IMG/VR virus record: IMGVR_UViG_3300001199_000001
Location: 5,404 to 69,403 of that record
DNA from: a virus
Lineage: Duplodnaviria; Heunggongvirae; Uroviricota; Caudoviricetes
Direction: 5' to 3' (one strand)
DNA: 64,000 nucleotides
The number at the start of each line of letters is the position of its first letter. Position 1 is the stretch's first letter. Below the pieces are notes generated by a model. The model ran no database searches. It saw only the letters and a list, made by a program, of their open reading frames with translations, and was not told where the DNA came from. The translations under genes and the position numbers were made by a program. Shown here piece by piece: positions 5,124-54,387 of this stretch.

Positions 5124-5422
5124 TGCCCTATTCCCTCTACCGCACGCGTGACGGCGCCGGGGACAGCGGCGGCATGAGCATGGCTCTCATTCCGAACAAG
5201 AGTGCTGCCTCTTCCGATGACCCCGATAACCTGAAAATCGACTACGAGCACAACGCCCGTCCGCGCGTGGGCGTCGCCATGCGTGTCGGCAGCATCGCCG
5301 GGCGTACTTTCGCCAGTCAGGACTGGTGGCAGACGACGCTGATAACCGAGATCATCAGCGATACGCCTGAAGAAGTGCGGTTCAAGACCGGTAACTCTGA
5401 ATATGTCTGGAAGGTGTTGTGA
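5123..5422 (+). CDS. hypothetical protein (N-terminus MPYSLYR, paralogous start)
   Basis: AGGAAAGG RBS, TAATG coupling. Confidence 0.55.
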   Translation: MPYSLYRTRDGAGDSGGMSMALIPNKSAASSDDPDNLKIDYEHNARPRVGVAMRVGSIAGRTFASQDWWQTTLITEIISDTPEEVRFKTGNSEYVWKVL

Positions 5423-7866: not shown

Positions 7867-8352
7867 ATGCTGATCCTCTACACCCTGGTCCGGACCGACA
7901 TGCCCTCCATGGGTTACGGCAAGGGCGCGGCCCAAGCCCAGCACGCCGCAACCGCCTTCTCTGAATTCGAAATGCTGCGCCCGCTGGAAGCTGATGGCGA
8001 GATCGACGCCGACGTAATGGAATGGCGCAAGTCCACCAACCAAGGCTTCGGCACCAAGCTGACCCTCGATTGCTCCGACAAAGAGACGATGATCAAGGTC
8101 GTCGCCGCCGCACGCAAGCTCGGCTTCCCGGCGCGTGTGGTCACCGACCCGACCTACCCCTACCTCGTATCCGACGAAATCGTCCCGCTGATCGATAAGG
8201 CCGTCCACACCGACGATCCGAAATCCATCGGCGGCGGGCAGTCGATCTGCTTCCGTGAAGAGAAGACCTGCGCCTACGTCTTCGGTCTGAAGGACGATGT
8301 CAGCATCCTGCTGTCGCGGTTCAAACTACTGCCGAATGAGCCTGTTGCATGA
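7867..8352 (+). CDS. PTH2-family peptidyl-tRNA hydrolase-like protein
   Basis: LVRTDMPSMGYGKGAAQAQHAA matches PTH2 VVRxDLxMxxGKxAAQxxHAA. Confidence 0.6.
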   Translation: MLILYTLVRTDMPSMGYGKGAAQAQHAATAFSEFEMLRPLEADGEIDADVMEWRKSTNQGFGTKLTLDCSDKETMIKVVAAARKLGFPARVVTDPTYPYLVSDEIVPLIDKAVHTDDPKSIGGGQSICFREEKTCAYVFGLKDDVSILLSRFKLLPNEPVA

Positions 8353-11873: not shown

Positions 11874-12179
11874 TTATCGTCCGTCATCCAGATTGCTGCG
11901 GGCCATGTCCAACATCTCAACGAACCACGTCGCGGCTGCGTAGCCTTGAAGGACGATCACGTTCTGGGCCTGTTCCATCTGCTTGCCGACCCGCTCCGCA
12001 TGCATCGCCTTGACCTCGATATAGAGACTGTCGTCGGGCAGAAAGAAATCGAGTGCCGTTGTGTTCTCCGGCTCCTTCTCGTGGAAGTAGCGGATACCCG
12101 CCCGGTCCATGCCGCCCGCGACATAGGCTTCCAGTGGATCGGAGATGACGACTGCCTTTCTAATAGTCGACAATGTCAT
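11874..12179 (-). CDS. VRR-NUC / PD-(D/E)xK-like nuclease, tentative
   Basis: ALDFFLPDDSLYIEVKAMHAE (D...EVK motif); internal ATG chosen to limit overlap with the DHH gene. Confidence 0.45.
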   Translation of the reverse strand: MTLSTIRKAVVISDPLEAYVAGGMDRAGIRYFHEKEPENTTALDFFLPDDSLYIEVKAMHAERVGKQMEQAQNVIVLQGYAAATWFVEMLDMARSNLDDGR

Positions 12180-13047
12180 CGCCTTCCCAGCCAATCGGCA
12201 TCCGGAAACCCGAAGCCCGCGCATGCCCGCCGCCGCCATACTTCACAGCAATCTGCGAGACATCCATCCCGTCGTCCGCCGACCGCAGGCTGAAAATGCG
12301 ATCACTGAGGCCGTCGTAATAGGTTGCCGCGAACGGCTTGTCCTTGGACATGATGTTCCCGGCGTCAGACCCCATGGTGTAAGGCACGTTCGCTACCGGC
12401 ACGCGGACACCGCCGATGACCATCTCGCGGGTCGTCTCTTCAAGAAGCGCTAGAATGTCCTTCTGCATACGGCGTTCGATAGCAGCGCCTTGGCTGATGA
12501 AGCTCGCTTCCATGACAGCGTCTTCCAGCCCCTTCGCCACATAAGACCACTCGGCGAAATCGTAGGGATAGCTGAACAGGTTCGCTGCGACTTCTCGCGA
12601 ATGTTTCATCTCGAATTTCCACAGGTCTCGGTCCTGCACGTAGCGCACCAGCAGGGGCGCAGGCTCGCCGGGATGAGCATACTCCCACGCCAGCATCGCC
12701 CCAGACTTATCCATGTCAAAGAAAGCCTGGATATGCGGATAGCCGTCGGCGGCGAGCACGCGCGGATCGTACAGTTTATCGACCCTATACTGCGCAAGGT
12801 CTTCCATGGCGCTCTTGTGGTGGTCGACAATCGTGATCGAAGCCGCCTTCTTGGCGAGCGCTTCCAGCACCGGACGCTTAAACGAATAGTCGACGAGCAG
12901 CACGTGCTTTCCCGCGACATCCGGTAGTTCGCCGTTGCTGTATGATCCCGGCCGAAATTCGATATCAGGCCAGCGCTTCCAGATCGCCCACGCCGCCGTG
13001 AACCCGTCCGCGCAGGGGGCGTGGTAGATGCAAATGTCGGGCTTCAT
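12160..13047 (-). CDS. DHH-family phosphoesterase
   Basis: APCADGFTAAW...VLLVDYS...IVDHH motifs. Confidence 0.75.
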   Translation of the reverse strand: MKPDICIYHAPCADGFTAAWAIWKRWPDIEFRPGSYSNGELPDVAGKHVLLVDYSFKRPVLEALAKKAASITIVDHHKSAMEDLAQYRVDKLYDPRVLAADGYPHIQAFFDMDKSGAMLAWEYAHPGEPAPLLVRYVQDRDLWKFEMKHSREVAANLFSYPYDFAEWSYVAKGLEDAVMEASFISQGAAIERRMQKDILALLEETTREMVIGGVRVPVANVPYTMGSDAGNIMSKDKPFAATYYDGLSDRIFSLRSADDGMDVSQIAVKYGGGGHARASGFRMPIGWEGDDIVDY

Positions 13048-16690: not shown

Positions 16691-17317
16691 TTACCCTCGG
16701 ATTTCTCTGATCGTCTCGTACTTGCGATGCGCCGGATTCCAGTAGAGCACCGGCTCTTTAACGACCGGTGTCCGCCGGAGAGACGGGTCGAGCGAGAAGA
16801 CCGCTTTCTTGACCGTCTCGTCAGTGACATTGAACCGCTTGCCGACTTCCGTGAAGCTCTTTCCTGCGCGGACCAACTTCAAGGCTTCGTTATAATCGAA
16901 GGTCCGTGGCCGACCTCGAATTTCGGATTTAAGGCGAGGGTTCTGTGTCTTGATGGCATACCAGATCGCCGCCCCGCTCACCTTGTACTTTTTGATCAGC
17001 GCGGTGATCTTGCTACCGGTGATATAATCGTTATAGGCCGCCTCATGATCGAACTTCCGTCGCCGAACGAGGGCAGTTCCCCTGACGATAACATCTCGAC
17101 CGAACTGGAGGTCAGGGTCAACGCGTTTGATGGCGCTGCGAACGGTCCGCTCGTGAATGCCTAAGTCCTTGGCGATCTCGGAGACCTTGGCGCCCGCCAC
17201 GTAGGCGTCATAAGCCTGCTGGTCGTAATTTGGGCGGACCTTCTTGCTGACCTTCTTATGAGACGCTGCCTTTGGTCGCTTAAAGGTCGTTTTTTCGAGG
17301 GTTTGGACGGTGGTCAA
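16691..17317 (-). CDS. DNA-binding protein with three tandem HTH repeats
   Basis: three repeats of Y(D/N)xYxxGxK(V/I)(S/T)E(I/V)xK..GxxxxT(V/I)xxA(I/V)K..(D/N)P. Confidence 0.6.
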   Translation of the reverse strand: MTTVQTLEKTTFKRPKAASHKKVSKKVRPNYDQQAYDAYVAGAKVSEIAKDLGIHERTVRSAIKRVDPDLQFGRDVIVRGTALVRRRKFDHEAAYNDYITGSKITALIKKYKVSGAAIWYAIKTQNPRLKSEIRGRPRTFDYNEALKLVRAGKSFTEVGKRFNVTDETVKKAVFSLDPSLRRTPVVKEPVLYWNPAHRKYETIREIRG

Positions 17318-17677: not shown

Positions 17678-18034
17678 CTAAATTGTCAAACTAGCACGGG
17701 CTTGCGCAGCGATAGCCCTAAAGGCTAGGGGGTCTGCCGCCAGATCAGCCATGATCTTGCGGTCAATTGCGACGCCCGCCTTTTCCAGGCCATGCACCAG
17801 CGTGGAATAGGTCAGACCCTCCAGTCGCGCAGCCGCGTTTATCCGTTGAATCCACAGGGCGCGGAAACTGCGCTTCTTGTTGCGGCGGTCACGATAAGCA
17901 TATTGCCCGGCCTTATCGACCGCAGCCTTGGCGGTACGGATTGTGCTCTTGCGCCGCCCTGAGAAGCCCTTGGCCTGCTCCAGAACGTTCTTGTGACGGG
18001 CGTGAGACGTGACGCCCCGTTTGACACGAGCCAT
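17678..18034 (-). CDS. rplT: 50S ribosomal protein L20 (bL20)
   Basis: [30 protein letters not shown]...; AAAGGA RBS. Confidence 0.85.
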
Positions 18035-18058: not shown

Positions 18059-18256
18059 TTAAGCGTAAGGCATGTAGGTTTTGATCTTCGCCGTGTCGGC
18101 GTCGCTCATCACCTTCGTGCCTCGGTTCTGACGGATGTATTTGCCGTTATGGCTAATCAAGCGGTGGCGCTTACCGGCGACACCTGCTTTGATCTTGCCC
18201 GCAGCCGTGATCTTGAAGCGCTTTTTGGCGCCTGACTTAGTCTTCAGTTTCGGCAT
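18059..18256 (-). CDS. rpmI: 50S ribosomal protein L35 (bL35)
   Basis: [23 protein letters not shown]...; AGAGGA RBS. Confidence 0.85.
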
Positions 18257-18333
18257 TTCGGTCCTCTGGACTACGTAAAAAGAATCGCCAAGGCATGCCA
18301 TGAGCCCGGCGATCCGAAGAGGTGTCTAATAAC

Positions 18334-19506: not shown

Positions 19507-19686
19507 TTATGGGCCTTCTTTCAGAGCTTCCTCGTACATACTCTGCGCGATCCGCCGCCACTTCCGGCGCTCTAACAACGGTATGCCGAACCACGAACCG
19601 CCGTGACCTTCCCCCGCGTGCGCGCTCAATTGCGCGTACTGGCCATACATGGCGACAGCGAGGAGTTCCCGCTCGACGAGGGTCAT
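19507..19686 (-). CDS. hypothetical 59-aa protein
   Basis: MTLVERELLAVAMYGQYAQL...; ATGA coupling with upstream gene, fills gap. Confidence 0.4.
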   Translation of the reverse strand: MTLVERELLAVAMYGQYAQLSAHAGEGHGGSWFGIPLLERRKWRRIAQSMYEEALKEGP

Positions 19687-20129
19687 GAAGGGAAATACTC
19701 TTCAAGATCGAGGAACGCGCCGACATCGTCGCCCAGCCGAACCGTTCGCGTGATTTGTTCCTCCCCTGAACCACGGACAAGATCACCATCGCCAAGGAGG
19801 GCGATTACCGGAGGCTCACATCGGAAGATCAACCCACGGCTCTCGACCCCAGCGAAGTTGCGCATCTTGACGCGGTTGCCCTTCGAGCCGCCGAGCATGC
19901 CCTTGGACTTACCTTCTTCCCAATAGCCGCGCTCCTTGAGCACGTCTTCAGGGACGATGGCGTTCTCTGGAATGTAGGCGACAACATCGCCCGGCGCCCA
20001 ACGCAGGTTGCCGTCATCATCCAGATTGGCGACGACCTCAGGGAAGTCGCCCTCCAGGGTGACTATGGAGAGGCGGGGCGCGACTGGGTGGAGACGGACG
20101 GCTTTGACGGTGGTGATAGGGGCTTTCAT
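19683..20129 (-). CDS. hypothetical protein
   Basis: 148 aa ORF. Confidence 0.55.
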   Translation of the reverse strand: MKAPITTVKAVRLHPVAPRLSIVTLEGDFPEVVANLDDDGNLRWAPGDVVAYIPENAIVPEDVLKERGYWEEGKSKGMLGGSKGNRVKMRNFAGVESRGLIFRCEPPVIALLGDGDLVRGSGEEQITRTVRLGDDVGAFLDLEEYFPS

Positions 20130-20149: not shown

Positions 20150-20533
20150 TTATCCCGATGTCAACACATTATCACGTCCCCGCATCAACCGCATGAGCAC
20201 CGCGCGCAGGGCTGATTGCTCGTAAGGCTTCTGAAGGAAGGGCAGGGTCTGATCCGGGACATTCTCCTTGTTATAACCGGTTGACAGCACAAAGGGGATT
20301 CCACGTCCTTGGAGTGCAGTAGCTACCGGGCAGCTATACACTCCGTTCAGGTTGAGGTCGAGAACCGCCATGTCTATCGACTCACTCTCGATGATCGCGA
20401 GAGCCTGCTCGACGCGTGCTGCGGGACCTATGACCTTGCAACCAAGGTCGGCTAACATGTCTTCCAGCACCCAGGAAACCATGAGTTCGTCCTCGACTAC
20501 GAGGACGCGGCGACCCAACAGCGGGCTAGTCAT
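20150..20533 (-). CDS. single-domain response regulator (CheY-like receiver, LovR-like)
   Basis: RVLVVEDELMV...VIGPA...IDMAVLDLNL...PFVLSTGY receiver motifs. Confidence 0.8.
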   Translation of the reverse strand: MTSPLLGRRVLVVEDELMVSWVLEDMLADLGCKVIGPAARVEQALAIIESESIDMAVLDLNLNGVYSCPVATALQGRGIPFVLSTGYNKENVPDQTLPFLQKPYEQSALRAVLMRLMRGRDNVLTSG

Positions 20534-21602
20534 TGGGGCTACGTCCATGACCCTTCGGAAGGGGCATAACGACTTCACACGAAACGCCGGATGGATCGTA
20601 ATCCAATCGGACTTCGCCGTTCAACTCTTGGGCAAGGCCGCGCTCGATAAGGCGAGAACCGAAGCCTTTGCGGGTGGGCTGCACGAGGCGCGGTCCGCCG
20701 CTTTCCTTCCACAGTAGTCGCATCCATTCGCCATCGGCTCGACATTCAACGCCCCAGGACATAGTAACCCGCCCGTCGTCTACCGAGAGTGCGCCATATT
20801 TTGCCGAGTTGGTGGCTAGCTCATGGAAAACCATGGCCAGAGACAAAGCCGCCTTAGGCCGCAAGCGGATATCGGCCTTGGCCTCTAAAGTGAAGCGTTC
20901 CTTTCGCTGATCGTGTAAGCCAAACGGTTCTAGGATAAGGTCGACCACGTTACGCAGCACCACACGGCCCCAACTCGCGCTGCCAAGCAGGCTATGGGTT
21001 TTCGACAACGCGAGGATGCGACCTTCAAACAGTGCAAGAACTTTGCCATCTACGATGCCCCGTAAAGTCTGCCTAGCTATCGCCAGCACGGTTGCGAGCG
21101 TGTTCTGGGTGCGATGGTCTAGTTCATTCAGAAGAAAGCGCAGACGATCTTGCTCCTTCTTGTGGCGCGTAGTGTCCACAAAGGAGGCGAAATGTTGAAC
21201 GACCTCCCCCACTTCGTTCTTGACAGGACTAATGAACACGGTGGCCCACAATACGCTGCCGTCCTTGCGACAATAGCGTATCTCCGTGTCGTGGCCTTCG
21301 CCGTCGTCACGCTCAAAATCGACTTTGATAGCCTCCAACATATCTGGTGCGCCCCCCGGCGCCATCAAGGAGTTAAAGGCCTGCCCAAGTACTTCGCCTC
21401 GACTGTATCCAGTGAGAGCCAAAAAGCTGTCATTAGCGAAAATGAGCGGGTTTCCCGCTGCCTTGGCGTCCGTGAACACCATAGCCATTCGAGTCTGCTC
21501 TGCGGCCACGACAAACGGTCCAAGCTCATCCTTGAACTCTTGAACAACGGCTTCTGCTTTGGCCTGCGCGTTGGCGGGCGTCTTGTGTTGTTCTTCATCC
21601 AT
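20526..21602 (-). CDS. LOV-type PAS domain / HWE (HisKA_2) histidine kinase, LovK-like, lacking the photoactive cysteine
   Basis: GNPLIFANDSFLALTGYSRGEVLGQAFNSLMAP (LOV core with GRNCRFLQG replaced), ...YCRKDGS..W; ELDHRTQNTLATVLAIARQT HWE H-box; C-terminal ATPase. Confidence 0.75.
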   Translation of the reverse strand: MDEEQHKTPANAQAKAEAVVQEFKDELGPFVVAAEQTRMAMVFTDAKAAGNPLIFANDSFLALTGYSRGEVLGQAFNSLMAPGGAPDMLEAIKVDFERDDGEGHDTEIRYCRKDGSVLWATVFISPVKNEVGEVVQHFASFVDTTRHKKEQDRLRFLLNELDHRTQNTLATVLAIARQTLRGIVDGKVLALFEGRILALSKTHSLLGSASWGRVVLRNVVDLILEPFGLHDQRKERFTLEAKADIRLRPKAALSLAMVFHELATNSAKYGALSVDDGRVTMSWGVECRADGEWMRLLWKESGGPRLVQPTRKGFGSRLIERGLAQELNGEVRLDYDPSGVSCEVVMPLPKGHGRSPND

Positions 21603-21659
21603 AAGAGCGGTCCTCTGCCGGAGTCCAGAGATACTTCTCAGTCTTCATAATGGGCGTAC

Positions 21660-22130
21660 TTAGGCACGCCGCTTGATCGCTGTTAGCGTCTCATCGTCCT
21701 CAACAACTGGACAACGCATGCCAAACGCATCCTTGAAACGTTTAACCACGACGGCGGGCAGTCGGACCTCCCCATCGCTAATGTGAACGGCGAGGCCGTG
21801 CAGACCGTCTTCCCATTTGCTATCAAGGAAGTTCCACAAACCGATCCGGCTGATCGTGATTTGTGGATTGATCAAGGGAGCATACTCCGCGAACCACAGT
21901 CGACCCGTTTTCGTAGAGTTCATCCACGCGTTACCGAACGGTGATAAGAACCGAACGCTGCCCTGAGCCTGAATTTGCTTGATGTATGTTTCCACCACCC
22001 CGGTAACTCCGGGTGCTTGTTGACGCGTCCCCGGATACCACGTCACGGACCAATCCGCCGGGGAAGCCAGGGAAGCAGCAGGTGCAAGCGCGGCTGCGCC
22101 GCCAAGGGCGAGAAGTTGTCTGCGGTCCAT
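21660..22130 (-). CDS. Tat-signal secreted protein (paralog A)
   Basis: MDRRQLLALGGAAALAPAASLA twin-arginine signal. Confidence 0.6.
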   Translation of the reverse strand: MDRRQLLALGGAAALAPAASLASPADWSVTWYPGTRQQAPGVTGVVETYIKQIQAQGSVRFLSPFGNAWMNSTKTGRLWFAEYAPLINPQITISRIGLWNFLDSKWEDGLHGLAVHISDGEVRLPAVVVKRFKDAFGMRCPVVEDDETLTAIKRRA

Positions 22131-22366
22131 TACCTTGTCCCTGCTTCCTCTAGCCCAGCTAGAATTTGTTCGTGGTTATCCAGAATGAACTGAATAAGCT
22201 CGCGCTGATGGGTATCGCAGCGTTCATTCAAACGCGCGAACTCCTTGATGCTCTTGGCGTCGTCGCTGTCGAGATCGAAGTTATCGACCTCATCCGATGC
22301 ATCAGCGGCAGCGTCGAGGACGTAGTAGTAGGTCGCGAGGGTGTGGAATTGATCTACGTCCATCAA
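22130..22366 (-). CDS. hypothetical acidic protein
   Basis: 78 aa ORF. Confidence 0.45.
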   Translation of the reverse strand: MMDVDQFHTLATYYYVLDAAADASDEVDNFDLDSDDAKSIKEFARLNERCDTHQRELIQFILDNHEQILAGLEEAGTR

Positions 22367-22836
22367 TCAATCTCCTCAAGCGCGCTAAACGGCTCTGTCG
22401 TCGCGCCGCCCTCAACATTGACCCACTCGCCGTTATCCAGCGACTCCCAGTCCCAGTCGTACCGTTCGCAAATGGCGCGCAGTTGCGGCTTACCGTAGTG
22501 ACTGTAGTCGTCAATTCGCAGCGCGCCCAGGAAGCCATCCTCGCCCGCGAGCCACAGCCACGCCCTCATATGGTCCAACGACCGCCCGGCGCTCAGCCCA
22601 CGGCAGTCGTTCGCCTTGCCCCAAGCGAAATCCATATATTCCTTCATCTCGTCAAGGACCGCCTCGCGATCTCGCGGCGAGATTTCCCAACCATCGCTCG
22701 TGGCTTCCGGCTTAAGGAATTGCTTGGCCTTATCGAACGGCAAACGGACGATCAGATCGCCGGTCTGTGTGCCGAAGAAGTCCGAACCGGATACCGCGTC
22801 GATGTGGGCGATGATTTCGTCGTCGGTGCGCATCAC
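22363..22836 (-). CDS. hypothetical protein
   Basis: 157 aa ORF. Confidence 0.55.
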   Translation of the reverse strand: MMRTDDEIIAHIDAVSGSDFFGTQTGDLIVRLPFDKAKQFLKPEATSDGWEISPRDREAVLDEMKEYMDFAWGKANDCRGLSAGRSLDHMRAWLWLAGEDGFLGALRIDDYSHYGKPQLRAICERYDWDWESLDNGEWVNVEGGATTEPFSALEEID

Positions 22837-23060: not shown

Positions 23061-23324
23061 CTAAGCATCGCTACTCACCGGGTCCTTCGCCAGCGCCAAC
23101 GCCTCTTGCAGCGTCTCGACGATCTCTTGAAGTTGTCCTCGCGAGAGCCACATCCAAGCTTTCTCATCCTTGCCTACAGCGAGGTAAACTGGACAGCTTC
23201 TAACCGCGCTGCCCCAGTCAGTCTCCTTCACCTTGACGCGAATAGGGTAGTAGCGCCCAACGGATTTATCCATCAGGATGGTCAGCGGTTTATCGTCATC
23301 GTTTCCTAGATTGCTACCACTCAC
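23061..23324 (-). CDS. hypothetical protein
   Basis: 87 aa ORF. Confidence 0.45.
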   Translation of the reverse strand: MSGSNLGNDDDKPLTILMDKSVGRYYPIRVKVKETDWGSAVRSCPVYLAVGKDEKAWMWLSRGQLQEIVETLQEALALAKDPVSSDA

Positions 23325-24670
23325 GCCGCCACCTCTTTCAGCAGCCCGCCTGTCTTACCCGCCAGATCGAAGTTATTCTCGATGAACTTGATCACCCTGA
23401 GCGCAGGCGTATCCCGCTTGAATACGATGTTCGGTCCGTGGTTATCCAGCATTACAGCTTTAACCCCCGGACGAACCTCAACGAGGTTTTGCGATGTGTT
23501 GGCTCCGCACTGATGCGAGCCACATTCGTTTTGCCACTGCGGCGCGACCTTGACCGGCTCGTGGTCTTCCCTGAACGGTAGATGGGCATGGACGATGCAG
23601 TCGTAGCCAGGATGCTCGCGGAACACCATTCGTTGGCTCTGGCCGCCGACTGATGGCTTGGCGCCGAACGCCACCACCTTATCGTCGCCTTCGTACTCGA
23701 CGCGCACAAGGCCGATTTCCGCTAGCTTGTTGAAGTCCTGTTTGCGTTTGGAAGTGAGGATCGTCTTGTCGTCGATCCGCACAGCAAAATGCCCGACCGT
23801 CGCGCCTCGGAAAGGCTTATAGGCGCCGCGCTCGATGAGGTAGTTGACGACTTCACGTAAATTGTCCGGGATCGCGGGATCATCCCATGCGACCGAGTCG
23901 CCGTGCTGGACTGTGGATCGCGTGAAGGTATTGGTTGATCTCGCCATCACCATCTTGACCAGACCCTTAAGCACCTCATCACGGTCCGTCGTTTCATGGT
24001 AGCGCGCCTCTTCCGGCGTCACGATCATGTTGTTTCGCGTCACCGTATCGTTGGCTAGGACGAGGTTCAGGCTGTCTCGCTTGAGCATATTCAGAGCGAT
24101 GGCGTACTGCTCGTCCGAAGTCGCCCCGGTCGTCGTCTTGAAACCGACCACGAAGATGTCCTTGCGGGTCTTGCGGATTTTACCGATCAGCTTGGTGGCT
24201 GGCGTGAGCACCATATCTTGCTGACCGGCTGAGGTCTTAAGACGTGGTTCATGCGAGCCTGAGGGCGTCGTGACGAAATCAGCATGCCACGTCGAACCAA
24301 GCTGCCCGTCTTCGAGGATCGATCCGTCGTAGTCGCACAGCGCCGCGTTCAGAACGATGACGCGGGTCTCGGGATCAGCGATCAGTTCGTCCAGCAGCGC
24401 GCTGACATCGTCGTTGGTGACGAGCTTGCTGAAATAGGGTTCAGCCATCTTAGTGAGATGAAGGTGCACCGTCTCCTTCATATCTTCAACAGCAACACAG
24501 GCTTCATAAAGGGACCTTATCTTGCCCCCGTTTGTAGCGAGGTCACGAACTGCCGCACCAAACAGTTCGGACAGTCTTCGCGCCGTCTTCCCGAACGCCG
24601 GAGCCGCAAGTGCGAGGTGATTGCGCACGTGGGAGAAAGTCCCGCCGCCGATGATGTGGATTTTCTTCAT
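23321..24670 (-). CDS. two-domain enzyme: N-terminal CoaB/DFP-like (phosphopantothenate-cysteine ligase fold) plus C-terminal class II aldolase/adducin-like domain
   Basis: KKIHIIGGGTFSHVRN...VLNAALCDY...IFVVGFKTTTG...LVLAND (DFP-like); GHFAVRIDD.TILTSKR...GAKPSVGGQS...HPGYDCIVHAHL (class II aldolase). Confidence 0.6.
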   Translation of the reverse strand: MKKIHIIGGGTFSHVRNHLALAAPAFGKTARRLSELFGAAVRDLATNGGKIRSLYEACVAVEDMKETVHLHLTKMAEPYFSKLVTNDDVSALLDELIADPETRVIVLNAALCDYDGSILEDGQLGSTWHADFVTTPSGSHEPRLKTSAGQQDMVLTPATKLIGKIRKTRKDIFVVGFKTTTGATSDEQYAIALNMLKRDSLNLVLANDTVTRNNMIVTPEEARYHETTDRDEVLKGLVKMVMARSTNTFTRSTVQHGDSVAWDDPAIPDNLREVVNYLIERGAYKPFRGATVGHFAVRIDDKTILTSKRKQDFNKLAEIGLVRVEYEGDDKVVAFGAKPSVGGQSQRMVFREHPGYDCIVHAHLPFREDHEPVKVAPQWQNECGSHQCGANTSQNLVEVRPGVKAVMLDNHGPNIVFKRDTPALRVIKFIENNFDLAGKTGGLLKEVAA

Positions 24671-27450: not shown

Positions 27451-28518
27451 TTACCTGACAGCAGTCAACACATTTGGGTTGGGCGCGGTGCGTCTCTGTG
27501 CGTTCGTGTAAGTGAACGGCGCTGTGACTTTTTGCGGATCGCGCGTGACGGGATAGCCCGTAATTTCGGTCGGCCATTGGGCAACCTTATATACCCGCAT
27601 CGAGCGGCGTGTACGACCCGCGACGAAGTCGTTCCAAGCCGTACTAATCAACCCGAACCAAGTGTCCACGTTGAGTGACGAACCGCGACGCAGATTGAGC
27701 GTAACATTGCGCAGCGCTAGGATCGGACTGCCCTTTTCGAGTTCCGCCCCCGACGAAAGCTTGGCAAGAAATTCCGACCACTTGTCGGCATACTCGCCGG
27801 ATGCTGTCGCCATCCAGCCGACCGCGCTGAGCGCCGACATCGAGACTGGCGGTCTGGCGGTATCGATTTTGGAGACGATCTGCTGGATTTCGGGGTGTTG
27901 GCGTACGAAATCGAGCATTTCGTTCTTACTGATCGTATTGTTCCGTGTAGGCAGCAACTGGTTCCACGTGATGATCAGGCGGACCGCAGCGGCGACCTTG
28001 GTCGCTTGGACGATGCCAGCGCCGCTGAGCGTGTCGGAGGCGCTGCGCTTGGCGCCTTGGTCCAGGGTGGAGAAAGTGTCTTCTTCGAGACCGCGAACGA
28101 CCATCATGCGAACCGGGGTCTTGGCGAGGAGGACGGCGGTGAGGCGGTGTTGACCGTTCAGGAGGCGACCGTTGCTAGCAAATTGAATGGGCTCGCCATT
28201 CATCTTCCACATGCCCATGCTCATTTGCCGGGCGAGAGATTCGACATGTTTGCGTCGAATAGGGCGGTTGCCCCAATTGGTGGTCGACAGATACTGATCG
28301 GCGACCTCCGGAGTGATAATTTCGTCCGACCACGAAAGGTGGGATGCGACGTGAACTGATTTGGACTTCGCAGCGGCCATGCCGTTACCTCCTGAGTTGA
28401 TGGTTTCTAACTCATAGTCGCCTTCGTTTCCCGTTGTCAACTCATTAGTGACAGCCTCGATGAACTGAGATTGGGGAGGCTTGGTCCGCCTCGAAAAGAT
28501 CAAATCCATTAGACTCAT
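27451..28518 (-). CDS. ParB-like nuclease domain (ParBc/DUF262-like) protein
   Basis: NGRLLNGQHRLTAV motif resembles DGQ(Q/H)R of ParB/DUF262. Confidence 0.5.
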   Translation of the reverse strand: MSLMDLIFSRRTKPPQSQFIEAVTNELTTGNEGDYELETINSGGNGMAAAKSKSVHVASHLSWSDEIITPEVADQYLSTTNWGNRPIRRKHVESLARQMSMGMWKMNGEPIQFASNGRLLNGQHRLTAVLLAKTPVRMMVVRGLEEDTFSTLDQGAKRSASDTLSGAGIVQATKVAAAVRLIITWNQLLPTRNNTISKNEMLDFVRQHPEIQQIVSKIDTARPPVSMSALSAVGWMATASGEYADKWSEFLAKLSSGAELEKGSPILALRNVTLNLRRGSSLNVDTWFGLISTAWNDFVAGRTRRSMRVYKVAQWPTEITGYPVTRDPQKVTAPFTYTNAQRRTAPNPNVLTAVR

Positions 28519-29630
28519 ACAACCACCCCTCCGTTGGCTGGGTTTTCCCGCACGACGCCGGTCCGTTCGTTGGGCGGGAAACAGAGAGAATAATGCAGAC
28601 CGGTGAAACGATATTCGAGGCGGGCGATGCCGTTGACCTCATTGGGTAGGCCCCTGGTCAAAAGACGCGTTCCGAAGGATGTTTTTTTAGGCCGTTCGAC
28701 ATACGGTCCGCCGCTCTCGTCCCAGCCCAGGCAAATCTCATTTTCACTGACGTGGACGCTGAGATTGACTGCGCCGTTGTATTCCGCGCTCCACGCCCCG
28801 TGCTTGGCGGCGTTAGTGGCCAATTCATGTAAGGCCATGCCAATCGACACCGCGTAATTCGGGTGAAGTTCGATATCCTTGCCGACCACCGTATAAACCT
28901 TGCCGTAAGGTGCGAGCAGGCGGTCGACCAACTCCCGGAAAAACACATGCGACCAGTGATGCTCGACTAGCAGATTATGGGTTTGCGAGAGCGCCATGAG
29001 ACGCTTCTCGAACGTCATCGCGAACTGCTCCTTCGACTCCGCCGCGCGCAAGGTCTGCTGGGCGATGGACTGCACCGACGCGAGTGTGTTCTTGACGCGG
29101 TGGTTCAGTTCGTCGATCAGCAGTTGCTGCCTACGATCATGCTCCTTCAGCGCAATCATCTCGTCCGATTTCTGCTGTAGCGCTAGGTAGGCGGCTTCCC
29201 GGTCACGCAACGCTTCGTCCTTCGCTCGAATCTGGTTTTCGAGCATTGAGGGAGAGGGTATCGCAAGCAGTTGCGGCGTCAAGGGCATCAACATTAATGC
29301 CGTAATCACTGACACTGAGGCGGTGACAGCCTTGAGCAAGGCCTCCACTCCGTAGTGTGGGTTCCACAGCGTCCAGATGGAAAAGAAGTGGGTCGTGCCG
29401 CAGAGCAGGATGAACGACACGAACAGCCAGCCCATCCACCCAAAGCTCAAACCCCTCCGCTTCAATAAGAAATAACCGATGGCGAACGGAATCGAATAAT
29501 ACGCCAGCCCGATAAGCACGTCGGAAGCGACATGGACAATGAGGATGTCAGGGCGCCATAATAAGCAGAGCCCGTGGGGATTTAGAAACTCGGAATCGAA
29601 GAAATATCGAATCCGTTCAATGATATTCAT
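28515..29630 (-). CDS. membrane-anchored HWE (HisKA_2) sensor histidine kinase
   Basis: N-terminal multi-TM domain; ELNHRVKNTLASVQSIAQQT H-box; C-terminal ATPase. Confidence 0.75.
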   Translation of the reverse strand: MNIIERIRYFFDSEFLNPHGLCLLWRPDILIVHVASDVLIGLAYYSIPFAIGYFLLKRRGLSFGWMGWLFVSFILLCGTTHFFSIWTLWNPHYGVEALLKAVTASVSVITALMLMPLTPQLLAIPSPSMLENQIRAKDEALRDREAAYLALQQKSDEMIALKEHDRRQQLLIDELNHRVKNTLASVQSIAQQTLRAAESKEQFAMTFEKRLMALSQTHNLLVEHHWSHVFFRELVDRLLAPYGKVYTVVGKDIELHPNYAVSIGMALHELATNAAKHGAWSAEYNGAVNLSVHVSENEICLGWDESGGPYVERPKKTSFGTRLLTRGLPNEVNGIARLEYRFTGLHYSLCFPPNERTGVVRENPANGGVVV

Positions 29631-31211: not shown

Positions 31212-32683
31212 TTATGCGTTCGCCCCGTTTCCGTTCGGCTTGCGCTTGGCCGGGACGACGGTCTCATTCGGGTGGAGCGTACCCACCGCCTTAGTGACGA
31301 TGGCCTGCCCCTCAGGTGTCTGTGCAAGGCCGGTTAGCATGGAGCCGATAGCCTGACCGCCCTTCGACGAGAACAGATCAGTGATCTTGCCGATGCCGGT
31401 CTGCACGTCGCCGCCGTTGACGATTACCTTCACGTCCGCCGCCTTGATGGCTTCGGCTTGCGCCACCCCGACGACTTGGTTGGCCTTCACCTGCTCGACA
31501 CTGACCAGATAGGTTTGATAGCCGGTGTTGCCGCCGATCTCACGGGCCAATTCCATCTGTGGCGCCACTTCAGCCAGTCCCTTGGCTTTCACGGCTTCAG
31601 CTTCGGCGAGGCCTCGCGCCTGAATGCCTTGAGCTTCCTTGATGGATTCTTCGAGGTTGCCTTCGGCGATCAAAATGGTCTGGTTTTTCTCGCCTTCGGC
31701 TTCGATTCGACGGCGTTCACGAACCGCTTCGGCGTCCACAACGGCGACATTCTTGTCCTGCTCGGCCTTAACCTCAGCCACCGCCTTGTCTTGCTGCGCC
31801 TTGATTTCAGCTACCTGCCGGTTGATCTCGGCGGCCCGTGTCATCTCGACCTGCTTGACCGCGTAATCTTTCTCGGCGGTGGTGCGGGATTCTTCGAGAA
31901 CCTGTTGCTCAGACCGCTGCTTCGCGATGCCGACGGCCTGCTCTTGCTGCGCGGTACGCTCGCCGACCTGTTGTGCGGCTTCCTGTCCAGCCAGATCGAT
32001 CTGACGGCGAGCTTCGATTTCACGCTCTTCGGCTTCGCGATGGTTTTCCGCAACAGCGACGCGGCTTTCCTTCTCGATGCGGGATTTCTCTTTGGCCATG
32101 ATGTTCTCAATGACCTTCGAGCCGTTTGAGTCACGGATGTCCATGAACTCGATGGTCTTGACCGTCTGAACGCCCCATTCCTTCAACTGTCCGTCGACTT
32201 CGGAAGTGAAACGCTCACCGAGCGACGAGCGGTCATGCATGATCGTCTCAAGCTGAGACTGTCCAAGCACGGTCCGGACGGCACCTTGCAGCACGGCGTG
32301 AAGCTGTTCAGTCAGTTCGGCGAAGTTGGCGACGCGGTGCGCGGCTACGTCCGAATCAGCGATCCGGAAGAAGGCCATGACATCGACGCGAAACGGCAGG
32401 CGTCCCTGGTCATAAGCTTCGTAATCCTTCAAGCCGACGTTGAAGACGCTCTCAGGAAGCTCGACCTGCGTGACGCCGAAGAACGGAACGAAACCGGGGA
32501 TTTCATAATAGACGTTCCCGGCTGTCCGGCCCTTGCCGTAGGAAGTCGTTGCTCGGCGTGATTGAACGATGTGCACCATATTGGTTGGTACGACCCGGCG
32601 CAGCACCATCATGATGATGGTTACGAGGACAACGAGGCCAAGCGCCACGCCTCCCCCGATCATTGCAATAATACTACCCATGA
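31212..32683 (-). CDS. SPFH/band-7 (flotillin-like, YqiK-type) protein with long coiled coil
   Basis: N-terminal TM, SPFH core, EA-rich coiled coil; GGAG RBS before ATG 32683. Confidence 0.7.
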
Positions 32684-32697
32684 CTCTGATGCTCCGG

Positions 32698-33252
32698 TTA
32701 TTTTCTGAGGTTTTTGGTGTCGACCTTGACCAAGGCGTCAAGGTGCTTATCGACAGAGGCGACGGCCTCATCACGAAGCTGCTCTTTCATCGCGCCGATG
32801 ATGTTGACGGCGTTCTGCTTGACGAGGTCGATAAAGGCCTCGCTGACGAACTTGCCGACCATCCATTCGGCGCGCGTCTTAGCGCCTTGTTTGTCGTAGT
32901 AGCCGCTGCTGGAAGAGAGTTCCTTGCCGCTCTTGTCGACAAGCTTAGACCAGAAGTCCTTCGATTTTTCGTTCAAGGTATCGCGGATGCTGATCGGCTG
33001 ACCGGCAGCTTGGCCATAAATATCGACAGGCTGGATCGGCTGCGTGAGCATAGACTCAAGCCGGTCATTGAGGAGGTCGTCGATCTTCGATGTGATCTTC
33101 GCGCCTATCGCCTCATCGACGCGTTTATCAATCAAACGACCAACGCGGTCGCCAACGTAGCCGGACGATGCGGCATCATCAGCTAGCTTCCGAGCGGCGC
33201 GCTCAAGGATTTGCTCGCGGATTTCTTCTTGGGAAAGGCCAAGGTCGATCAT
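32698..33252 (-). CDS. hypothetical protein
   Basis: 184 aa ORF. Confidence 0.55.
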   Translation of the reverse strand: MIDLGLSQEEIREQILERAARKLADDAASSGYVGDRVGRLIDKRVDEAIGAKITSKIDDLLNDRLESMLTQPIQPVDIYGQAAGQPISIRDTLNEKSKDFWSKLVDKSGKELSSSSGYYDKQGAKTRAEWMVGKFVSEAFIDLVKQNAVNIIGAMKEQLRDEAVASVDKHLDALVKVDTKNLRK

Positions 33253-34021: not shown

Positions 34022-34423
34022 TTAGGAGCGAAACGTCCCCAGGCCCATGCCCTTGGCGATCTCGCTACGGCGTTTCGCATAGTTAGGGGCGGTCATGGGA
34101 TAATCGGACGGGAGACCCCACTTACGGCGATAAGCTTCCGGCGACATGTCGTAACGCGCGCGGAGGTGACGCTTCAGCATTGTCAGCCGCTTGCCGTCCT
34201 CCAGGCAGACGATATAGTCAGGTTGAATCGACCGCCTGATCGAGACGGCGGGCTCTTTCTGTTCAACAGGCGCTTCATCAGGGGCGTCGAGGGTGGCCAT
34301 AGTGCGATGCACCGAGCGGATCAGTTCCGGTATAGTTTCCACGGGGACCTGATTATTCGCCACGTATGCCGCGACGATATCGGCGCTCATGTGGATAATG
34401 TCTTCACTGCTGTCCGTAGTCAT
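34022..34423 (-). CDS. Ros/MucR-family transcriptional regulator with degenerate zinc finger
   Basis: IVCLEDGKRLTMLKRHLRARYDMSPEAYRRKWGLPSDYPMTAPNYAKRRSEIAKGMGLG vs Ros CLECG..FK.LKRHL..H..TPEEYR.KW.LP.DYPMVAP.YA..RS.LAK.MGLG. Confidence 0.8.
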   Translation of the reverse strand: MTTDSSEDIIHMSADIVAAYVANNQVPVETIPELIRSVHRTMATLDAPDEAPVEQKEPAVSIRRSIQPDYIVCLEDGKRLTMLKRHLRARYDMSPEAYRRKWGLPSDYPMTAPNYAKRRSEIAKGMGLGTFRS

Positions 34424-34460: not shown

Positions 34461-34634
34461 TTAGTTTCCGTTGATTCCTCGCATGGTCGCAACCCATGCC
34501 TTATTCAGTTCGTCGATACTCTTCATGATGTCGTCGGCCGTGGGAAACGGACCGATATCATGGCCGATACAGGTGTCGCGATAATACCATCCCTTTTCGG
34601 TCTGCCAGTACTGCTGTCCACGATAATTATCCAT
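34461..34634 (-). CDS. hypothetical 57-aa protein
   Basis: MDNYRGQQYWQTEKGWYYRDTCIGHDIGPF...; C-terminal part of track ORF 34461..34913. Confidence 0.4.
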   Translation of the reverse strand: MDNYRGQQYWQTEKGWYYRDTCIGHDIGPFPTADDIMKSIDELNKAWVATMRGINGN

Positions 34635-35112
34635 TGGTGAGTCTCTTGAGGTATTCCCACGCTTGTTTCGTCCACCGCGCATCGTCGAGGGCATTATGGA
34701 CAGTGCCCTCGTGTTTTGGGAGCCGGAGCGCAGGATTGAGCATGTAGCGCCATTGCTGGATATCAAGACAGAACATCGGGAAGTGTTTCGGTGATTGCAC
34801 CATCGAGCCGAACAGCCAACAGAAAGCGACCCAATCATAGCTAGCGAAGTAGGCCCAGAACTCTGGATGCTTGTCGTCACCGATGAAATTGAGAACAGCA
34901 GGCCCGATCTCATGATAAGGCATGAGCACGTCGCCGCCGCTTAACAGTGGTTTGATGTTGGCTTGTATCCAGTGTTCCGCCGGGACTTCGCCCCAGACGA
35001 AATCGGCATTCTCAGCGTAGAATTCCCGCCCGTCCTCAGCGACGATCCCAAGCGAGATGAGGTGCAGTCGGCCGGGACGGTCCCAGAATTCCGTGTCGAT
35101 GAAGTATCTCAT
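34627..35112 (-). CDS. DEDDh 3'-5' exonuclease (DnaQ/oligoribonuclease-like)
   Basis: FIDTEF...LISLGIV; H.ALDDA motif. Confidence 0.7.
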   Translation of the reverse strand: MRYFIDTEFWDRPGRLHLISLGIVAEDGREFYAENADFVWGEVPAEHWIQANIKPLLSGGDVLMPYHEIGPAVLNFIGDDKHPEFWAYFASYDWVAFCWLFGSMVQSPKHFPMFCLDIQQWRYMLNPALRLPKHEGTVHNALDDARWTKQAWEYLKRLTNG

Positions 35113-42046: not shown

Positions 42047-42811
42047 TTAGGGGATCGACGCCAGTCGCAATGTTCCGTGTCGCGGAAAATTCACTGCGTC
42101 TACAGTCGAGCTTCCAGTAGCTTGGCAGCAGATGATCGCAGAAGGCCCGCCGCCGTTCCCGTTAAACACGCCGACAGCTAAGTTACCGCTGGCGAATGCT
42201 TCTGAATCGAGATTGGTCCGCCAAGATAATACTAAGGGAAGGCCGTCCTGTTTACCCTCTTCGTATGGCGTATGGCCGTGGACGATGTGAGGCCAGTCCG
42301 GGAAACCCGCTTCACTATTCAAGAAGAGGCCTCTGATCCACATCATCGTATTTGCGTCTTGCTCGGTTAAAGGCACGTGAGGCCTAAAGCCTGCATGCAC
42401 GAATACTCGCCCGGCTTTTTCGACGACGTAGGGTAGGTTCTCGATCCACCGAATGTGGGCGGACGGGATCAGTGGCCAGTAGTTGGGCTTACCCCATCCG
42501 ACCTCGCCACCGTAGCTCTCAATGGCCATTTCCCCACCGTTGTCCTGCCAGAAGCGAACCTCTGAACGTGTACGGAGGGTGTAAGCCTCAAGCATCAACT
42601 GCTCGTGGTTGCCCCGTAGGCAGGTGACATTATCCTGCGTCGATAGCTCGATCAGCTTGTCTAGAACCTGCTTCGATTGCGGGCCACGGTCGACGTAGTC
42701 GCCTAGAAAGACGATCTCATGCTCTTGCCCCGACGCGTGAGCGGCAATCGCGTCGAGCGCCTGCGTCAGCAGATCATACCGTCCGTGGATATCGCCGATA
42801 GCGAAAATCAT
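42047..42811 (-). CDS. PPP-family Ser/Thr protein phosphatase (lambda phosphatase/ApaH-like metallophosphoesterase)
   Basis: IGDIHGRYD...VFLGDYVDRGP...LRGNHE motifs. Confidence 0.75.
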   Translation of the reverse strand: MIFAIGDIHGRYDLLTQALDAIAAHASGQEHEIVFLGDYVDRGPQSKQVLDKLIELSTQDNVTCLRGNHEQLMLEAYTLRTRSEVRFWQDNGGEMAIESYGGEVGWGKPNYWPLIPSAHIRWIENLPYVVEKAGRVFVHAGFRPHVPLTEQDANTMMWIRGLFLNSEAGFPDWPHIVHGHTPYEEGKQDGLPLVLSWRTNLDSEAFASGNLAVGVFNGNGGGPSAIICCQATGSSTVDAVNFPRHGTLRLASIP

Positions 42812-48446: not shown

Positions 48447-50246
48447 ATGTCCGGACTCGCTCCGAACTCCTCGAATTATCAAAGAGTTTCACGCGCCGTC
48501 GATCAGGCCGTCCATCTGCTTGTCCACCCCGAATATGAGTACTGGCTTCCGGAATGGCGGAAGATCAGGGACGCTCTGCGTGGCCAAAAGGAGATCAAGC
48601 AGAAGTCCGAGAGCTACCTGAAGCGTATGAAGGGGATGGACGACGAGGACTACGAAATCTATCTCGACCGCGCCTTGTTCTACAACATGACCGCGCAGAC
48701 CCTGAACGGCATGATCGGTCAGGTTTTCCGGCGCGAGCCCATCGTCCGCAACCTGCCGGACAAATTTAAGAACGCTGTCCGTAAGTTCGCTAAAGACGGA
48801 ACCAGCCATATCGGGCTGGCCAAGACCAGCATGGGCGAACAGCTATCGCTGGCTCGTTTTGGCATTCTCGTCGATGCGGCGGCTTCCGTACAATTGGAAA
48901 GCCCGTCTTCGTACGCCGTCGGCTACCAGACAGAAGATATCCTTGATTGGACCGTTGAAGAGGTCGACGGATTTTATCGCCCGACACGCGTCCTGCTGCG
49001 GGAATATGTCCGCGACGACTCGTTGTCGGCGAGCAATGCGCCGAGCGATACGGTCTCCCGCCGTGGAGCCGGTCCCCGCGTCAATGTGTCTAAAGCACGG
49101 GCTGGCATGCAGCCGAAACGCTCGTACACGAACTTCCAATATAAGGTGATCTACCGGGAACTCCTGCTGATCCCGCATCCTCGTCACCCGCAATTCGAAC
49201 GTGTGTACGTCCAGCGTCTTTATGACACAGACCCGCAGTCAGCCCCATCGTCCGAAGTCGTTCCTGTCATTCGCGGCGTGCCGCTGCCGTTCATCCCCTT
49301 CCAGTTTTTCGGCTCGCGCACGAACACCGCTGATATTGAGCCGCCGCCGCTAAACGACATTGTCGATATTAACCTGTCGCACTACCGGACCTACGCTGAG
49401 CTTGAGTACGGTCGTACCTTCACGGCCTTGCCAGTCTATTATGCGCCGGGCGGTAACGACGAAGGGGCGTCCGCGTACCATATCGGCCCCAATATGGTTT
49501 GGGAGGTTCCGCCGGACGGGTCCGAGCCGGGCATCCTTGAATATAAAGGCGAAGGCCTGAAGGCGCTTGAAAAAGCGCTGGAACAAAAAGAACAGCAGAT
49601 CGCCTCCATCGGCGGTCGTCTGATGCCCGGTGCGTCGCGGTCGATCTCTGAGTCGAACAACCAGACTGCGCTACGTGAATCAAATGAACAGTCCTTGCTT
49701 CTCAACGCCATCCAGGCCTGTGAAGAGGGCTTTGCTGAAGTCATTCGCTGGTGGCTGATGTTCCGTGACGTGCCGCTGATCGAGACGCAGGGCCTCCGTT
49801 ACGAGTTCAACACCCAGTTCCTGTCTACGCCGATTGGCGCCCGCGAACTGCGCGCCATGCAGCTTATGTACAAAGAAGGCATCATCACTGACCAAATCTA
49901 CTACGAGTTCCTTAAGAAGGCCGAGGTCGTGCCGTCATCGTGGACCTTCGAAGAATACCAAAAGGCCCGCAAGGACCCGAACAGCTTCGTCAACAACCCC
50001 GACGCCCAAGCCCGTCAACGCGGTTATTCCGACCGCAAGCAGGAACTTGGCGTGGAGTCGACCGAGTTCGAGCAAGACATCCTCGACCGTGAGATCGAGA
50101 TCGAAGAAGAAAAGCTTGAAATTGCCGCCAAGGTTGGTTCGACCACCGTCGCAGCTTCCCGCAAGCTGGGCGATCCCGAGCAAGCTGAACCGGCGAAGGC
50201 TGATAAACTTTCTGCCAAGAAAGCCGCAGCAAAACCTAGCAAGTAG
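48447..50246 (+). CDS. putative portal protein
   Basis: 599 aa, first gene of late plus-strand block, followed by scaffold and capsid; no Walker A. Confidence 0.5.
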   Translation: MSGLAPNSSNYQRVSRAVDQAVHLLVHPEYEYWLPEWRKIRDALRGQKEIKQKSESYLKRMKGMDDEDYEIYLDRALFYNMTAQTLNGMIGQVFRREPIVRNLPDKFKNAVRKFAKDGTSHIGLAKTSMGEQLSLARFGILVDAAASVQLESPSSYAVGYQTEDILDWTVEEVDGFYRPTRVLLREYVRDDSLSASNAPSDTVSRRGAGPRVNVSKARAGMQPKRSYTNFQYKVIYRELLLIPHPRHPQFERVYVQRLYDTDPQSAPSSEVVPVIRGVPLPFIPFQFFGSRTNTADIEPPPLNDIVDINLSHYRTYAELEYGRTFTALPVYYAPGGNDEGASAYHIGPNMVWEVPPDGSEPGILEYKGEGLKALEKALEQKEQQIASIGGRLMPGASRSISESNNQTALRESNEQSLLLNAIQACEEGFAEVIRWWLMFRDVPLIETQGLRYEFNTQFLSTPIGARELRAMQLMYKEGIITDQIYYEFLKKAEVVPSSWTFEEYQKARKDPNSFVNNPDAQARQRGYSDRKQELGVESTEFEQDILDREIEIEEEKLEIAAKVGSTTVAASRKLGDPEQAEPAKADKLSAKKAAAKPSK

Positions 50247-54236: not shown

Positions 54237-54387
54237 GAAGTGACTGGACTAAAAATTTGTGGGGTTGGATTCGTCCAACCCCGCTCCAAACAACCCTTGG
54301 GGACGCTGGACGCCCGAGGGGGAAGCCCGAGGCGGGGGGCCTGCCTCCTCAACCAGTCTAGCGTAACCCTTGAGGAGAATTCAGCTT

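Follow-up and report, generated by a model that had tools for sequence, protein, structure and literature searches.

A phage-encoded HWE kinase–response regulator pair with a LOV-related PAS domain that lacks the polar flavin contacts

A stretch of viral DNA of 64,000 nucleotides, positions 5,404 to 69,403 of IMG/VR record IMGVR_UViG_3300001199_000001 (the window), encodes on its minus strand a sensor histidine kinase and, directly downstream of it, a single-domain response regulator. Both open reading frames (ORFs) were confirmed on that strand where a first reading of the letters (the original prediction) had placed them. The kinase consists, in order, of N-terminal helices, one PAS_9 domain, a dimerization and histidine phosphotransfer (DHp) domain of the HWE type and a catalytic core. 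The features of the locus, each followed by the evidence for it, are these:

20526..21602, minus strand: sensor histidine kinase gene, 358 amino acids (aa) (ORF, Pfam, NCBIfam, AlphaFold2 model)
20150..20533, minus strand: single-domain response regulator gene, 127 aa (Pfam Response_reg, PDB matches, gene call in an independent assembly)
21611..21615, minus strand: Shine-Dalgarno-like GAGGA, 8 nt 5' of the kinase ATG (read from the sequence)
21168..21491, minus strand: LOV-related PAS core, about aa 38-145 (HMMER against Brucella LOV, Foldseek, AlphaFold2 model)
21360..21386, minus strand: GQAFNSLMA (aa 73-81), which replaces the LOV motif GRNCRFLQG (alignments)
20559..21155, minus strand: HWE kinase core, aa 150-348 (Pfam HWE_HK, family-invariant columns, 5EPV match)

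The regulator start and the kinase stop share an 8-nt overlap, ATGACTAG, and bacterial operons show the same overlap. An alternative GTG start would lengthen the regulator to 142 aa (20150..20578), but the 127-aa version that begins with the ATG at 20533 is the likely one, since the independent assembly calls it and its 8-nt overlap matches that of the bacterial homologues. As read from this layout, the two genes form a translationally coupled operon. A search for promoters gave no sigma-70-like site, and all terminator-like matches fall within coding sequence. Pfam recognizes PAS_9 at aa 51-145 of the kinase (1.2e-15), HWE_HK at aa 160-239 (2e-18) and Response_reg in the regulator (4e-9); all three exceed the curated cut-offs, and their E-values are far beyond chance. 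These matches, together with the presence of the quoted peptides in the translation, bear out the original description of a 358-aa LOV-like PAS and HWE kinase followed immediately by a CheY-like regulator. Both proteins retain the full set of catalytic residues.

Several lines of evidence show that the kinase core is intact. It scores 67.4 bits against HWE_HK (gathering threshold 22.8) and carries the H-box HRxxN (H163/R164/N167, with H163 as the phospho-acceptor), the N-box H260-E-L-A-T-N265 and W298-x-E300, that is, the domain together with the three motifs by which HWE histidine kinases are recognized. The glycine boxes read E300-SGGP and G313-FGSRL. With the exception of H260, which is conserved in at least 90% of members, the HWE signature residues are invariant across the family. 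In the AlphaFold2 model, for which the predicted local distance difference test (pLDDT) score is 83.6, N-terminal helices precede a five-stranded PAS core (aa 40-143), a long helix (aa 145-180) bears His163, and a second DHp helix and an alpha/beta catalytic domain follow, so that one continuous helix is predicted to join the PAS domain to the kinase core of this soluble protein. The best solved relative is the Brucella LOV-HK 6PH4 (2e-49), the LOV part of which aligns with aa 27-147 and the kinase part with aa 139-348; on the kinase domain of Brucella LOV-HK (5EPV), the phage core shows 32% identity (Foldseek, alignment). The phage protein deviates at 9 of 159 positions that are highly conserved in its family, which falls within the bacterial range (median 6, maximum 16) and points to ordinary purifying selection.

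The PAS domain is where the protein departs from its solved relatives. Its fold is of the LOV/PAS_9 type, as indicated both by Pfam and by superposition of the AlphaFold2 model on the Brucella LOV domain 6PH2, which gives a TM score of 0.87, a root-mean-square deviation of 1.9 Å and 34-35% identity in Foldseek. The original prediction of a LOV affinity over that of a generic PAS domain is thereby sustained. Aligned to the GRNCRFLQG of Brucella LOV-HK and AsLOV2, GQAFNSLMA places Phe76 at the position of the adduct cysteine, Asn77 at that of the phosphate-binding Arg and Met80 at that of the ribityl-binding Gln. Neither the GXNCRFLQ adduct-cysteine motif nor the polar flavin contacts of LOV domains are found in the phage protein. 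Indeed, the residues at all eight polar positions of AsLOV2 are lost, as the following comparison with the phage protein and with a family consensus built from 52 sequences shows:

AsLOV2 N449: A in the phage, S in the family consensus
AsLOV2 C450: F in the phage, F in the family consensus
AsLOV2 R451: N in the phage, N in the family consensus
AsLOV2 Q454: M in the phage, M in the family consensus
AsLOV2 R467: K in the phage, E in the family consensus
AsLOV2 N482: Y in the phage, Y in the family consensus
AsLOV2 N492: A in the phage, A in the family consensus
AsLOV2 Q513: F in the phage, F in the family consensus

The cysteine is absent from 118 of the 118 closest bacterial homologues, nearly all of which have Phe in its place, and their consensus motif is GQSFNFLMA; we therefore reject the idea that the cysteine was lost in the phage. 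When the PAS region alone was searched against 1.84 billion representative proteins, proteins with multiple PAS domains dominated until single domains were re-scored. Members of the family then gave 113-176 bits and the best outsider, a canonical GRNCRF LOV domain, 48.7 bits; the nearest outsiders were canonical LOV domains intermixed with other PAS_9 domains. In a HMMER search of the PDB, the Brucella LOV domain scored 58 bits against the phage PAS domain. Thus, the LOV affinity of the domain by itself appears real but modest, the best single domains from outside the family scoring 49-58 bits. Based on these comparisons, we assign the domain a LOV ancestry and place it in a separate, tightly conserved family with a pocket rebuilt with hydrophobic residues. 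That the new motif is so strongly conserved suggests that the domain has kept a function. The original prediction of a cysteine-less LOV domain holds insofar as the cysteine is missing and Phe stands there; the loss of all eight polar contacts makes the domain instead a member of a distinct PAS family devoid of flavin contacts.

The regulator is, by the same kind of evidence, an intact receiver of the HWE-associated, FATGUY-like type. Its key residues are E14-D15, the phospho-acceptor D59, N61 at D+2, T85, Y87 at T+2 and K102. Among solved structures (LovR has none in the PDB), the closest are Sma0114 of Sinorhizobium meliloti (2LPM, 8.5e-23) and SdrG of Sphingomonas melonis (5IEB, 1.5e-17), whereas the receiver domains of PhyR match more weakly than either. 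Like FATGUY regulators, it is a stand-alone receiver with an (F)ATG(U)Y-type motif after beta4 and an HWE kinase as partner; the motif reads PFVLSTGY, compared with PFIFATGY in Sma0114 and PFVFATGG, and so has Ser instead of Ala. The aromatic residue of Y-T coupling on beta5 has not been lost: Phe99 occupies the K-3 position, where Sma0114 has Leu and SdrG has Val. Together with Sma0114, SdrG and MrrA of Caulobacter crescentus, the phage protein belongs among the HWE-associated single-domain regulators encoded beside an HWE kinase. It differs from the first two in the Ser and in Phe99, and resembles MrrA in its Asn at D+2 and Tyr at T+2. MrrA, which has these same residues, is stable in its phosphorylated form.

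The pair lies in a minus-strand block of small genes that extends from about 10 kb to 47 kb. Genes of phage families flank it on both sides:

22363-22836: phrog_5706 gene
23321-24670, minus strand: phrog_35624 gene
27451-28518: phrog_5931 gene
12160-13047: DHH phosphoesterase gene, phrog_4771

Further along, the portal gene (48447-50246) matches phrog_145 at 7e-109, and its product is 58-59% identical to the portals of Caulobacter phages CcrBL10 and phiCbK. Identity to the CcrBL10 counterpart is 76% for the major capsid protein (54370-55323) and 51% for the scaffold protein, and genes of tail-protein families follow the capsid genes at 61-63.6 kb. The structural module shared by phiCbK-like phages (Dolichocephalovirinae and relatives) is therefore present, with portal, scaffold and capsid at 59%, 51% and 76% identity to CcrBL10. 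In a related phage contig (L026), the gene directly 3' of the regulator (19683-20129) has a homologue at 56% identity, and several further window genes have 34-72% identical homologues there in roughly the same order. An identical kinase is recorded on a contig of 278,859 bp, and the gene order around the pair recurs in a separate assembly of 70,922 bp. Among the 100 window ORFs inventoried with Pfam, domains of capsid, portal and fibre proteins occur and genes for cellular housekeeping are nearly absent; no tRNA gene was found in the window. The portal and capsid matches, the flanking phage families, the L026 homologues and the independent assembly rule out a host-chromosomal or chimeric contig. 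The claimed phage context thus stands, and the gene content identifies the source as a phiCbK-like (Dolichocephalovirinae-related) jumbo phage and not a host chromosome.

Two of the neighbours of the pair deserve mention in their own right. The ORF directly upstream of the kinase (21660-22130, minus strand) begins MDRRQLLALGGAAALAPAASLASP, which resembles a twin-arginine (Tat) signal peptide; it has no match in Pfam, PHROG or NCBIfam. In the phrog_35624 protein (449 aa; 23321-24670), a DFP (CoaBC-like) C-terminal-type domain is joined to a class II aldolase domain; a 50% identical copy of the protein is encoded on one short IMG/VR contig.

Outside the phage, a very large number of kinase homologues, about 353 aa long and 59-71% identical, occur on bacterial contigs of up to 2.6 Mb from Beijerinckiaceae, Acetobacteraceae, Caulobacteraceae and Geminicoccaceae. 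In every bacterial locus with a readable downstream side, a regulator (42-69% identity) lies directly 3' of the kinase. Some of these loci look chromosomal, one of them adjoining CsbD, ferritin/Dps and PPK2 genes. Others are in mobile-element settings with an integrase, an integrative and conjugative element (ICE) or a prophage (L003, L013, L019, L020). The settings include an integrase with VapE; an integrase with a RecD-like helicase and Mom; an ICE with RPA/ParA/TraF-like genes and a SIR2-nSTAND gene; and a predicted prophage in which a family member sits between a tail-fibre gene and an integrase. By these comparisons, the phage pair belongs to a large alphaproteobacterial kinase–regulator family that is often carried on ICEs and prophages. 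In most bacterial loci (for example 0.55 vs 0.65; L002-L010, L017-L020), the GC content of the kinase gene is 3-9 points below that of the surrounding locus, as would be expected of a module that circulates horizontally.

In about half of the close bacterial loci, a gene for a ParD-like ribbon-helix-helix protein (66-72 aa, 75-90% identity) overlaps the kinase start. These loci are often on ICEs or integrase-bearing elements, and some database entries fuse the ParD-like protein to the kinase (417-423 aa). No such gene is present in the phage. Bacterial examples are:

L020:5811-6029, ParD-like gene
L019:5130-5330, ParD-like gene
L003:5829-6026, ParD-like gene
L023:6811-7011, ParD-like gene

Megablast of the region against 50,697 phage records returned no match, tblastn of the PAS kinase and of the second HWE kinase described below against the same records returned only partial matches on three tiny unannotated contigs, and no cultured phage in that set carries the PAS kinase. 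An exact-peptide scan of IMG/VR with the kinase likewise gave no match, and a scan of 2.9 million IMG/VR contigs with the family alignment yielded one other family member, beside a prophage integrase.

The phage also encodes a second HWE kinase, with a different sensor:

28515..29630, minus strand: second HWE kinase gene, 371 aa, with an ethylene-receptor-type (ETR1_N) membrane sensor (ETR1_N 5.5e-36, HWE_HK 1e-26)

This protein keeps the Cys and His of the ethylene/copper site (LLCGTTHFF). The cores of the two phage kinases share 43% identity, and their H-box helices are nearly identical. Most relatives of the ETR1_N kinase come from Phenylobacterium and other Caulobacteraceae (48-55% identity), and a 63% identical copy is present in the related phage contig L026. 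No second receiver gene was found in the window, and since the ETR1_N kinase has no regulator gene of its own there, it may share the single regulator with the PAS kinase. An SPFH/Band_7 gene (31212-32774, minus strand) lies 1.6 kb upstream of the ETR1_N kinase gene, and in a Phenylobacterium genome (L027:1947-3391) the homologous kinase is also found just 3' of Band_7 and NfeD genes; the Band_7 gene and the kinase gene may have been captured together as a piece of host DNA.

A pattern scan of IMG/VR recovered other HWE kinases, with GAF, dCache or PAS sensors, at the following loci, in two of the five of which a regulator lies directly downstream:

L028:9476-11019, viral HWE kinase locus
L030:8969-10657, viral HWE kinase locus
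L034:9203-10699, viral HWE kinase locus
L031:8258-11036, viral HWE kinase locus
L029:2-2303, viral HWE kinase locus

The regulator of L028 is 45% identical to that of the window. The contigs that carry such kinases include two of 499,572 bp and 607,744 bp as well as smaller ones, and strong PHROG matches in their flanks suggest that they derive from huge phages.

The original prediction read the pair as the LovK-LovR arrangement of alphaproteobacteria, and the comparison supports this in part. Like LovK of C. crescentus, the phage kinase is a protein of about 350 aa in which an N-terminal LOV-type PAS domain is fused to an HWE core, with a regulator encoded directly downstream, and it is colinear with the LovK profile (NCBIfam NF052306 BluLightHisKinLov / PRK13559; aa 18-347 against 12-333 of 334). 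However, its scores lie well under the LovK-type cut-offs, at 223.9 vs 450 bits for the NF052306 equivalog and 224.5 vs 361 bits for PRK13559, and the regulator is nearest to Sma0114 and SdrG. Furthermore, the layout itself is no hallmark of LovK-LovR, because a kinase followed by a single-domain regulator is general in the whole bacterial family, often on mobile elements. Unlike LovK, the phage kinase has neither the Cys nor the polar flavin contacts and is encoded by a phage. The best solved relatives for both halves of the protein are the Brucella abortus LOV-HK (6PH4, 6PH2, 5EPV) and EL346 of Erythrobacter (4R3A), which bind flavin mononucleotide via GRNCRFLQG where the phage protein has GQAFNSLMA; the Brucella enzyme has, in addition, an extra PAS domain between LOV domain and kinase that the phage kinase lacks.

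The HWE/HisKA2 kinases and FATGUY regulators of alphaproteobacteria cross-talk promiscuously in a phosphorelay that governs PhyR and, with it, the general stress response; in Caulobacter, LovK-LovR takes phosphate away from MrrA and so damps this response, and LovK also affects the holdfast via hfiA (PMC5964349). SdrG, too, is a general-stress-response regulator. A phage of the phiCbK type is already known to carry a homologue of regulators in this pathway: TgrL of phiCbK is homologous to the host XRE regulators RtrA/RtrB/CdxA/CdxB, which act downstream of LovK-SkaH-SpdS, is expressed early and aids phage production (PMC10688885). TgrL and the pair have no sequence relationship, and whereas TgrL is a DNA-binding output factor, the pair consists of an upstream sensor and a phosphotransfer protein.

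By analogy with these systems, we propose that the phage pair intervenes in the HWE-kinase, general-stress and adhesion phosphorelay of the host, a proposal to which we give about an even chance. The phage would express the pair during infection, and the two proteins would plug into the host network of HWE/HisKA2 kinases, single-domain regulators and PhyR, which governs the general stress response and, in Caulobacter, the holdfast and adhesion as well. There, the pair would have one of two roles: it would mute the stress response by serving as a phosphate sink in the manner of LovK-LovR, or it would be an additional donor of phosphate. The ETR1_N kinase would probably feed the same regulator. 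Such interference with stress and adhesion is more likely than light sensing.

Several observations weigh against this proposal. No gene resembling PhyR, NepR or EcfG was found in the window. The regulator is a receiver domain without an output domain and, given its Phe at K-3 and its Ser for Ala, is not of the textbook FATGUY type. The closest homologues of the kinase are from Beijerinckiaceae and Acetobacteraceae, not from Caulobacteraceae. The GC content at third codon positions (GC3) of the pair is 0.61-0.66 compared with 0.68-0.74 for typical genes of the phage, and the visible 18.4 kb of L026 do not contain the pair. The low GC3 and this absence fit a fairly recent, possibly dispensable acquisition, and based on both we regard the pair as accessory cargo in the phage lineage.

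These same two observations would be expected if the pair were a neutral passenger, recently captured as mobile-element cargo and without a role in infection, as would the frequency of the family on ICEs and prophages and the position of its only other member in the IMG/VR scan beside a prophage integrase. However, the best bacterial match is just 71% identical, which implies that the capture was not very recent. Furthermore, no catalytic or family-invariant residue has been lost, conserved sites diverge no further than they do among bacterial members, and the operon overlap and Shine-Dalgarno-like GAGGA are intact. The conservation of the second HWE kinase in the related phage also suggests that such signalling is used. 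We consider a passenger unlikely.

Alternatively, the pair could serve a timing circuit internal to the phage, in which an intracellular cue (metabolite, redox or energy state) leads to a phosphorylated regulator that binds a phage protein and so sets, for example, replication, lysis timing or deferred lysis. Single-domain regulators do work through protein-protein contacts, the co-directional block also encodes Ros/MucR-like and helix-turn-helix/sigma-region-4 proteins, and two sensor kinases with one regulator in the window resemble a small integrated circuit. Nevertheless, no phage partner of the regulator was identified, and the bacterial pair occurs without phage genes nearby, which implies that its native partners are cellular; we hold such a circuit to be distinctly unlikely.

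A role in counter-defence has a slight chance at best. If the bacterial triads of ParD-like protein, kinase and regulator were a defence or addiction module, the phage copy could poison or drain it, as a decoy. It would accord with this that about half of the close loci have a highly conserved ParD-like gene overlapping the start of the kinase, that several triads lie next to integrases, a SIR2-nSTAND NTPase gene, Mom or ICE genes, and that the phage lacks the ParD-like gene. On the other hand, none of the three proteins (kinase, regulator, ParD-like protein) has a meaningful defence match in PADLOC (the regulator matched only PDC-M60B, E 2.6e-4, 18.9 bits), no toxin-like partner is evident, and many family members occur in ordinary chromosomal settings without the ParD-like gene.

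Finally, engineered LOV domains without the cysteine can still signal, and the LOV-like fold and the LOV kinases among the closest solved relatives could point to a light or redox sensor that works by flavin photoreduction, but the domain is very unlikely to sense light or redox state through a flavin given that all eight polar contacts, among them both phosphate Arg residues, the ribityl Gln, both isoalloxazine Asn residues and the signalling Gln, are replaced family-wide, mostly by hydrophobic or bulky residues.

The window holds further genes of note. Genes for bL35 and bL20 (18059-18301 and 17678-18034, both minus strand; Pfam 2.5e-19 and 9e-42) stand inside the phage block in the bacterial rpmI-rplT order, and no IF3 gene was recognized upstream of them. 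Adjoining them is a 208-aa protein gene (16691-17317, minus strand) with matches to sigma-70 region 4, HTH_23 and Mor-like helix-turn-helix domains; its product may be a phage transcription factor and is not, by these matches, an evident EcfG-type sigma factor. A regulator of the Ros/MucR family (133 aa; 34022-34423, minus strand; Pfam 6.4e-49), in which the second zinc-binding Cys is replaced by Asp (CLEDG...KRHL), is a further phage-carried homologue of a global alphaproteobacterial regulator. Accessory genes of RNA metabolism and translation at 7867-8352 (plus strand), 34627-35112, 42047-42811 and 19683-20129 (all minus strand) comprise a PTH2 peptidyl-tRNA hydrolase, an Rv2179c-like 3'-5' exoribonuclease, a calcineurin-like phosphoesterase and an RNA-ligase-like N-terminal fragment.

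Two-component systems are considered part of the equipment of the cell. The component families described here are already known, and the bacterial PAS-kinase family has generic annotation only; in our full-text searches of the literature we found no earlier description of a phage-borne HWE kinase or kinase–regulator pair. An intact pair and a second sensor kinase in a jumbo phage of lytic type suggest that the phage may manipulate the alphaproteobacterial HWE/PhyR stress and adhesion network at its top level, that of the sensor, whereas the example known so far, TgrL of phiCbK, works at the level of a transcription factor. The finding also points to a very large, uncharacterized bacterial family of LOV-derived sensors in which the flavin pocket has been swapped for GQSFNFLMA and which has spread on mobile elements; annotation pipelines could mislabel these sensors as blue-light receptors. 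More broadly, and as a tentative suggestion that we think possible but less than probable, large phages of alphaproteobacteria may carry environmental sensors of their own, with the two kinases of this phage, one sensing through a LOV-derived PAS domain and the other through an ethylene/copper-type membrane domain, converging on one phage regulator. The virus would in this way gauge cellular or external conditions for itself and reset the stress and adhesion phosphorelay of the host accordingly. If this is true, virus-encoded two-component sensing would be a recurring strategy, given that viral contigs of 0.5-0.6 Mb encode further HWE kinases, of which two are followed directly by a regulator.

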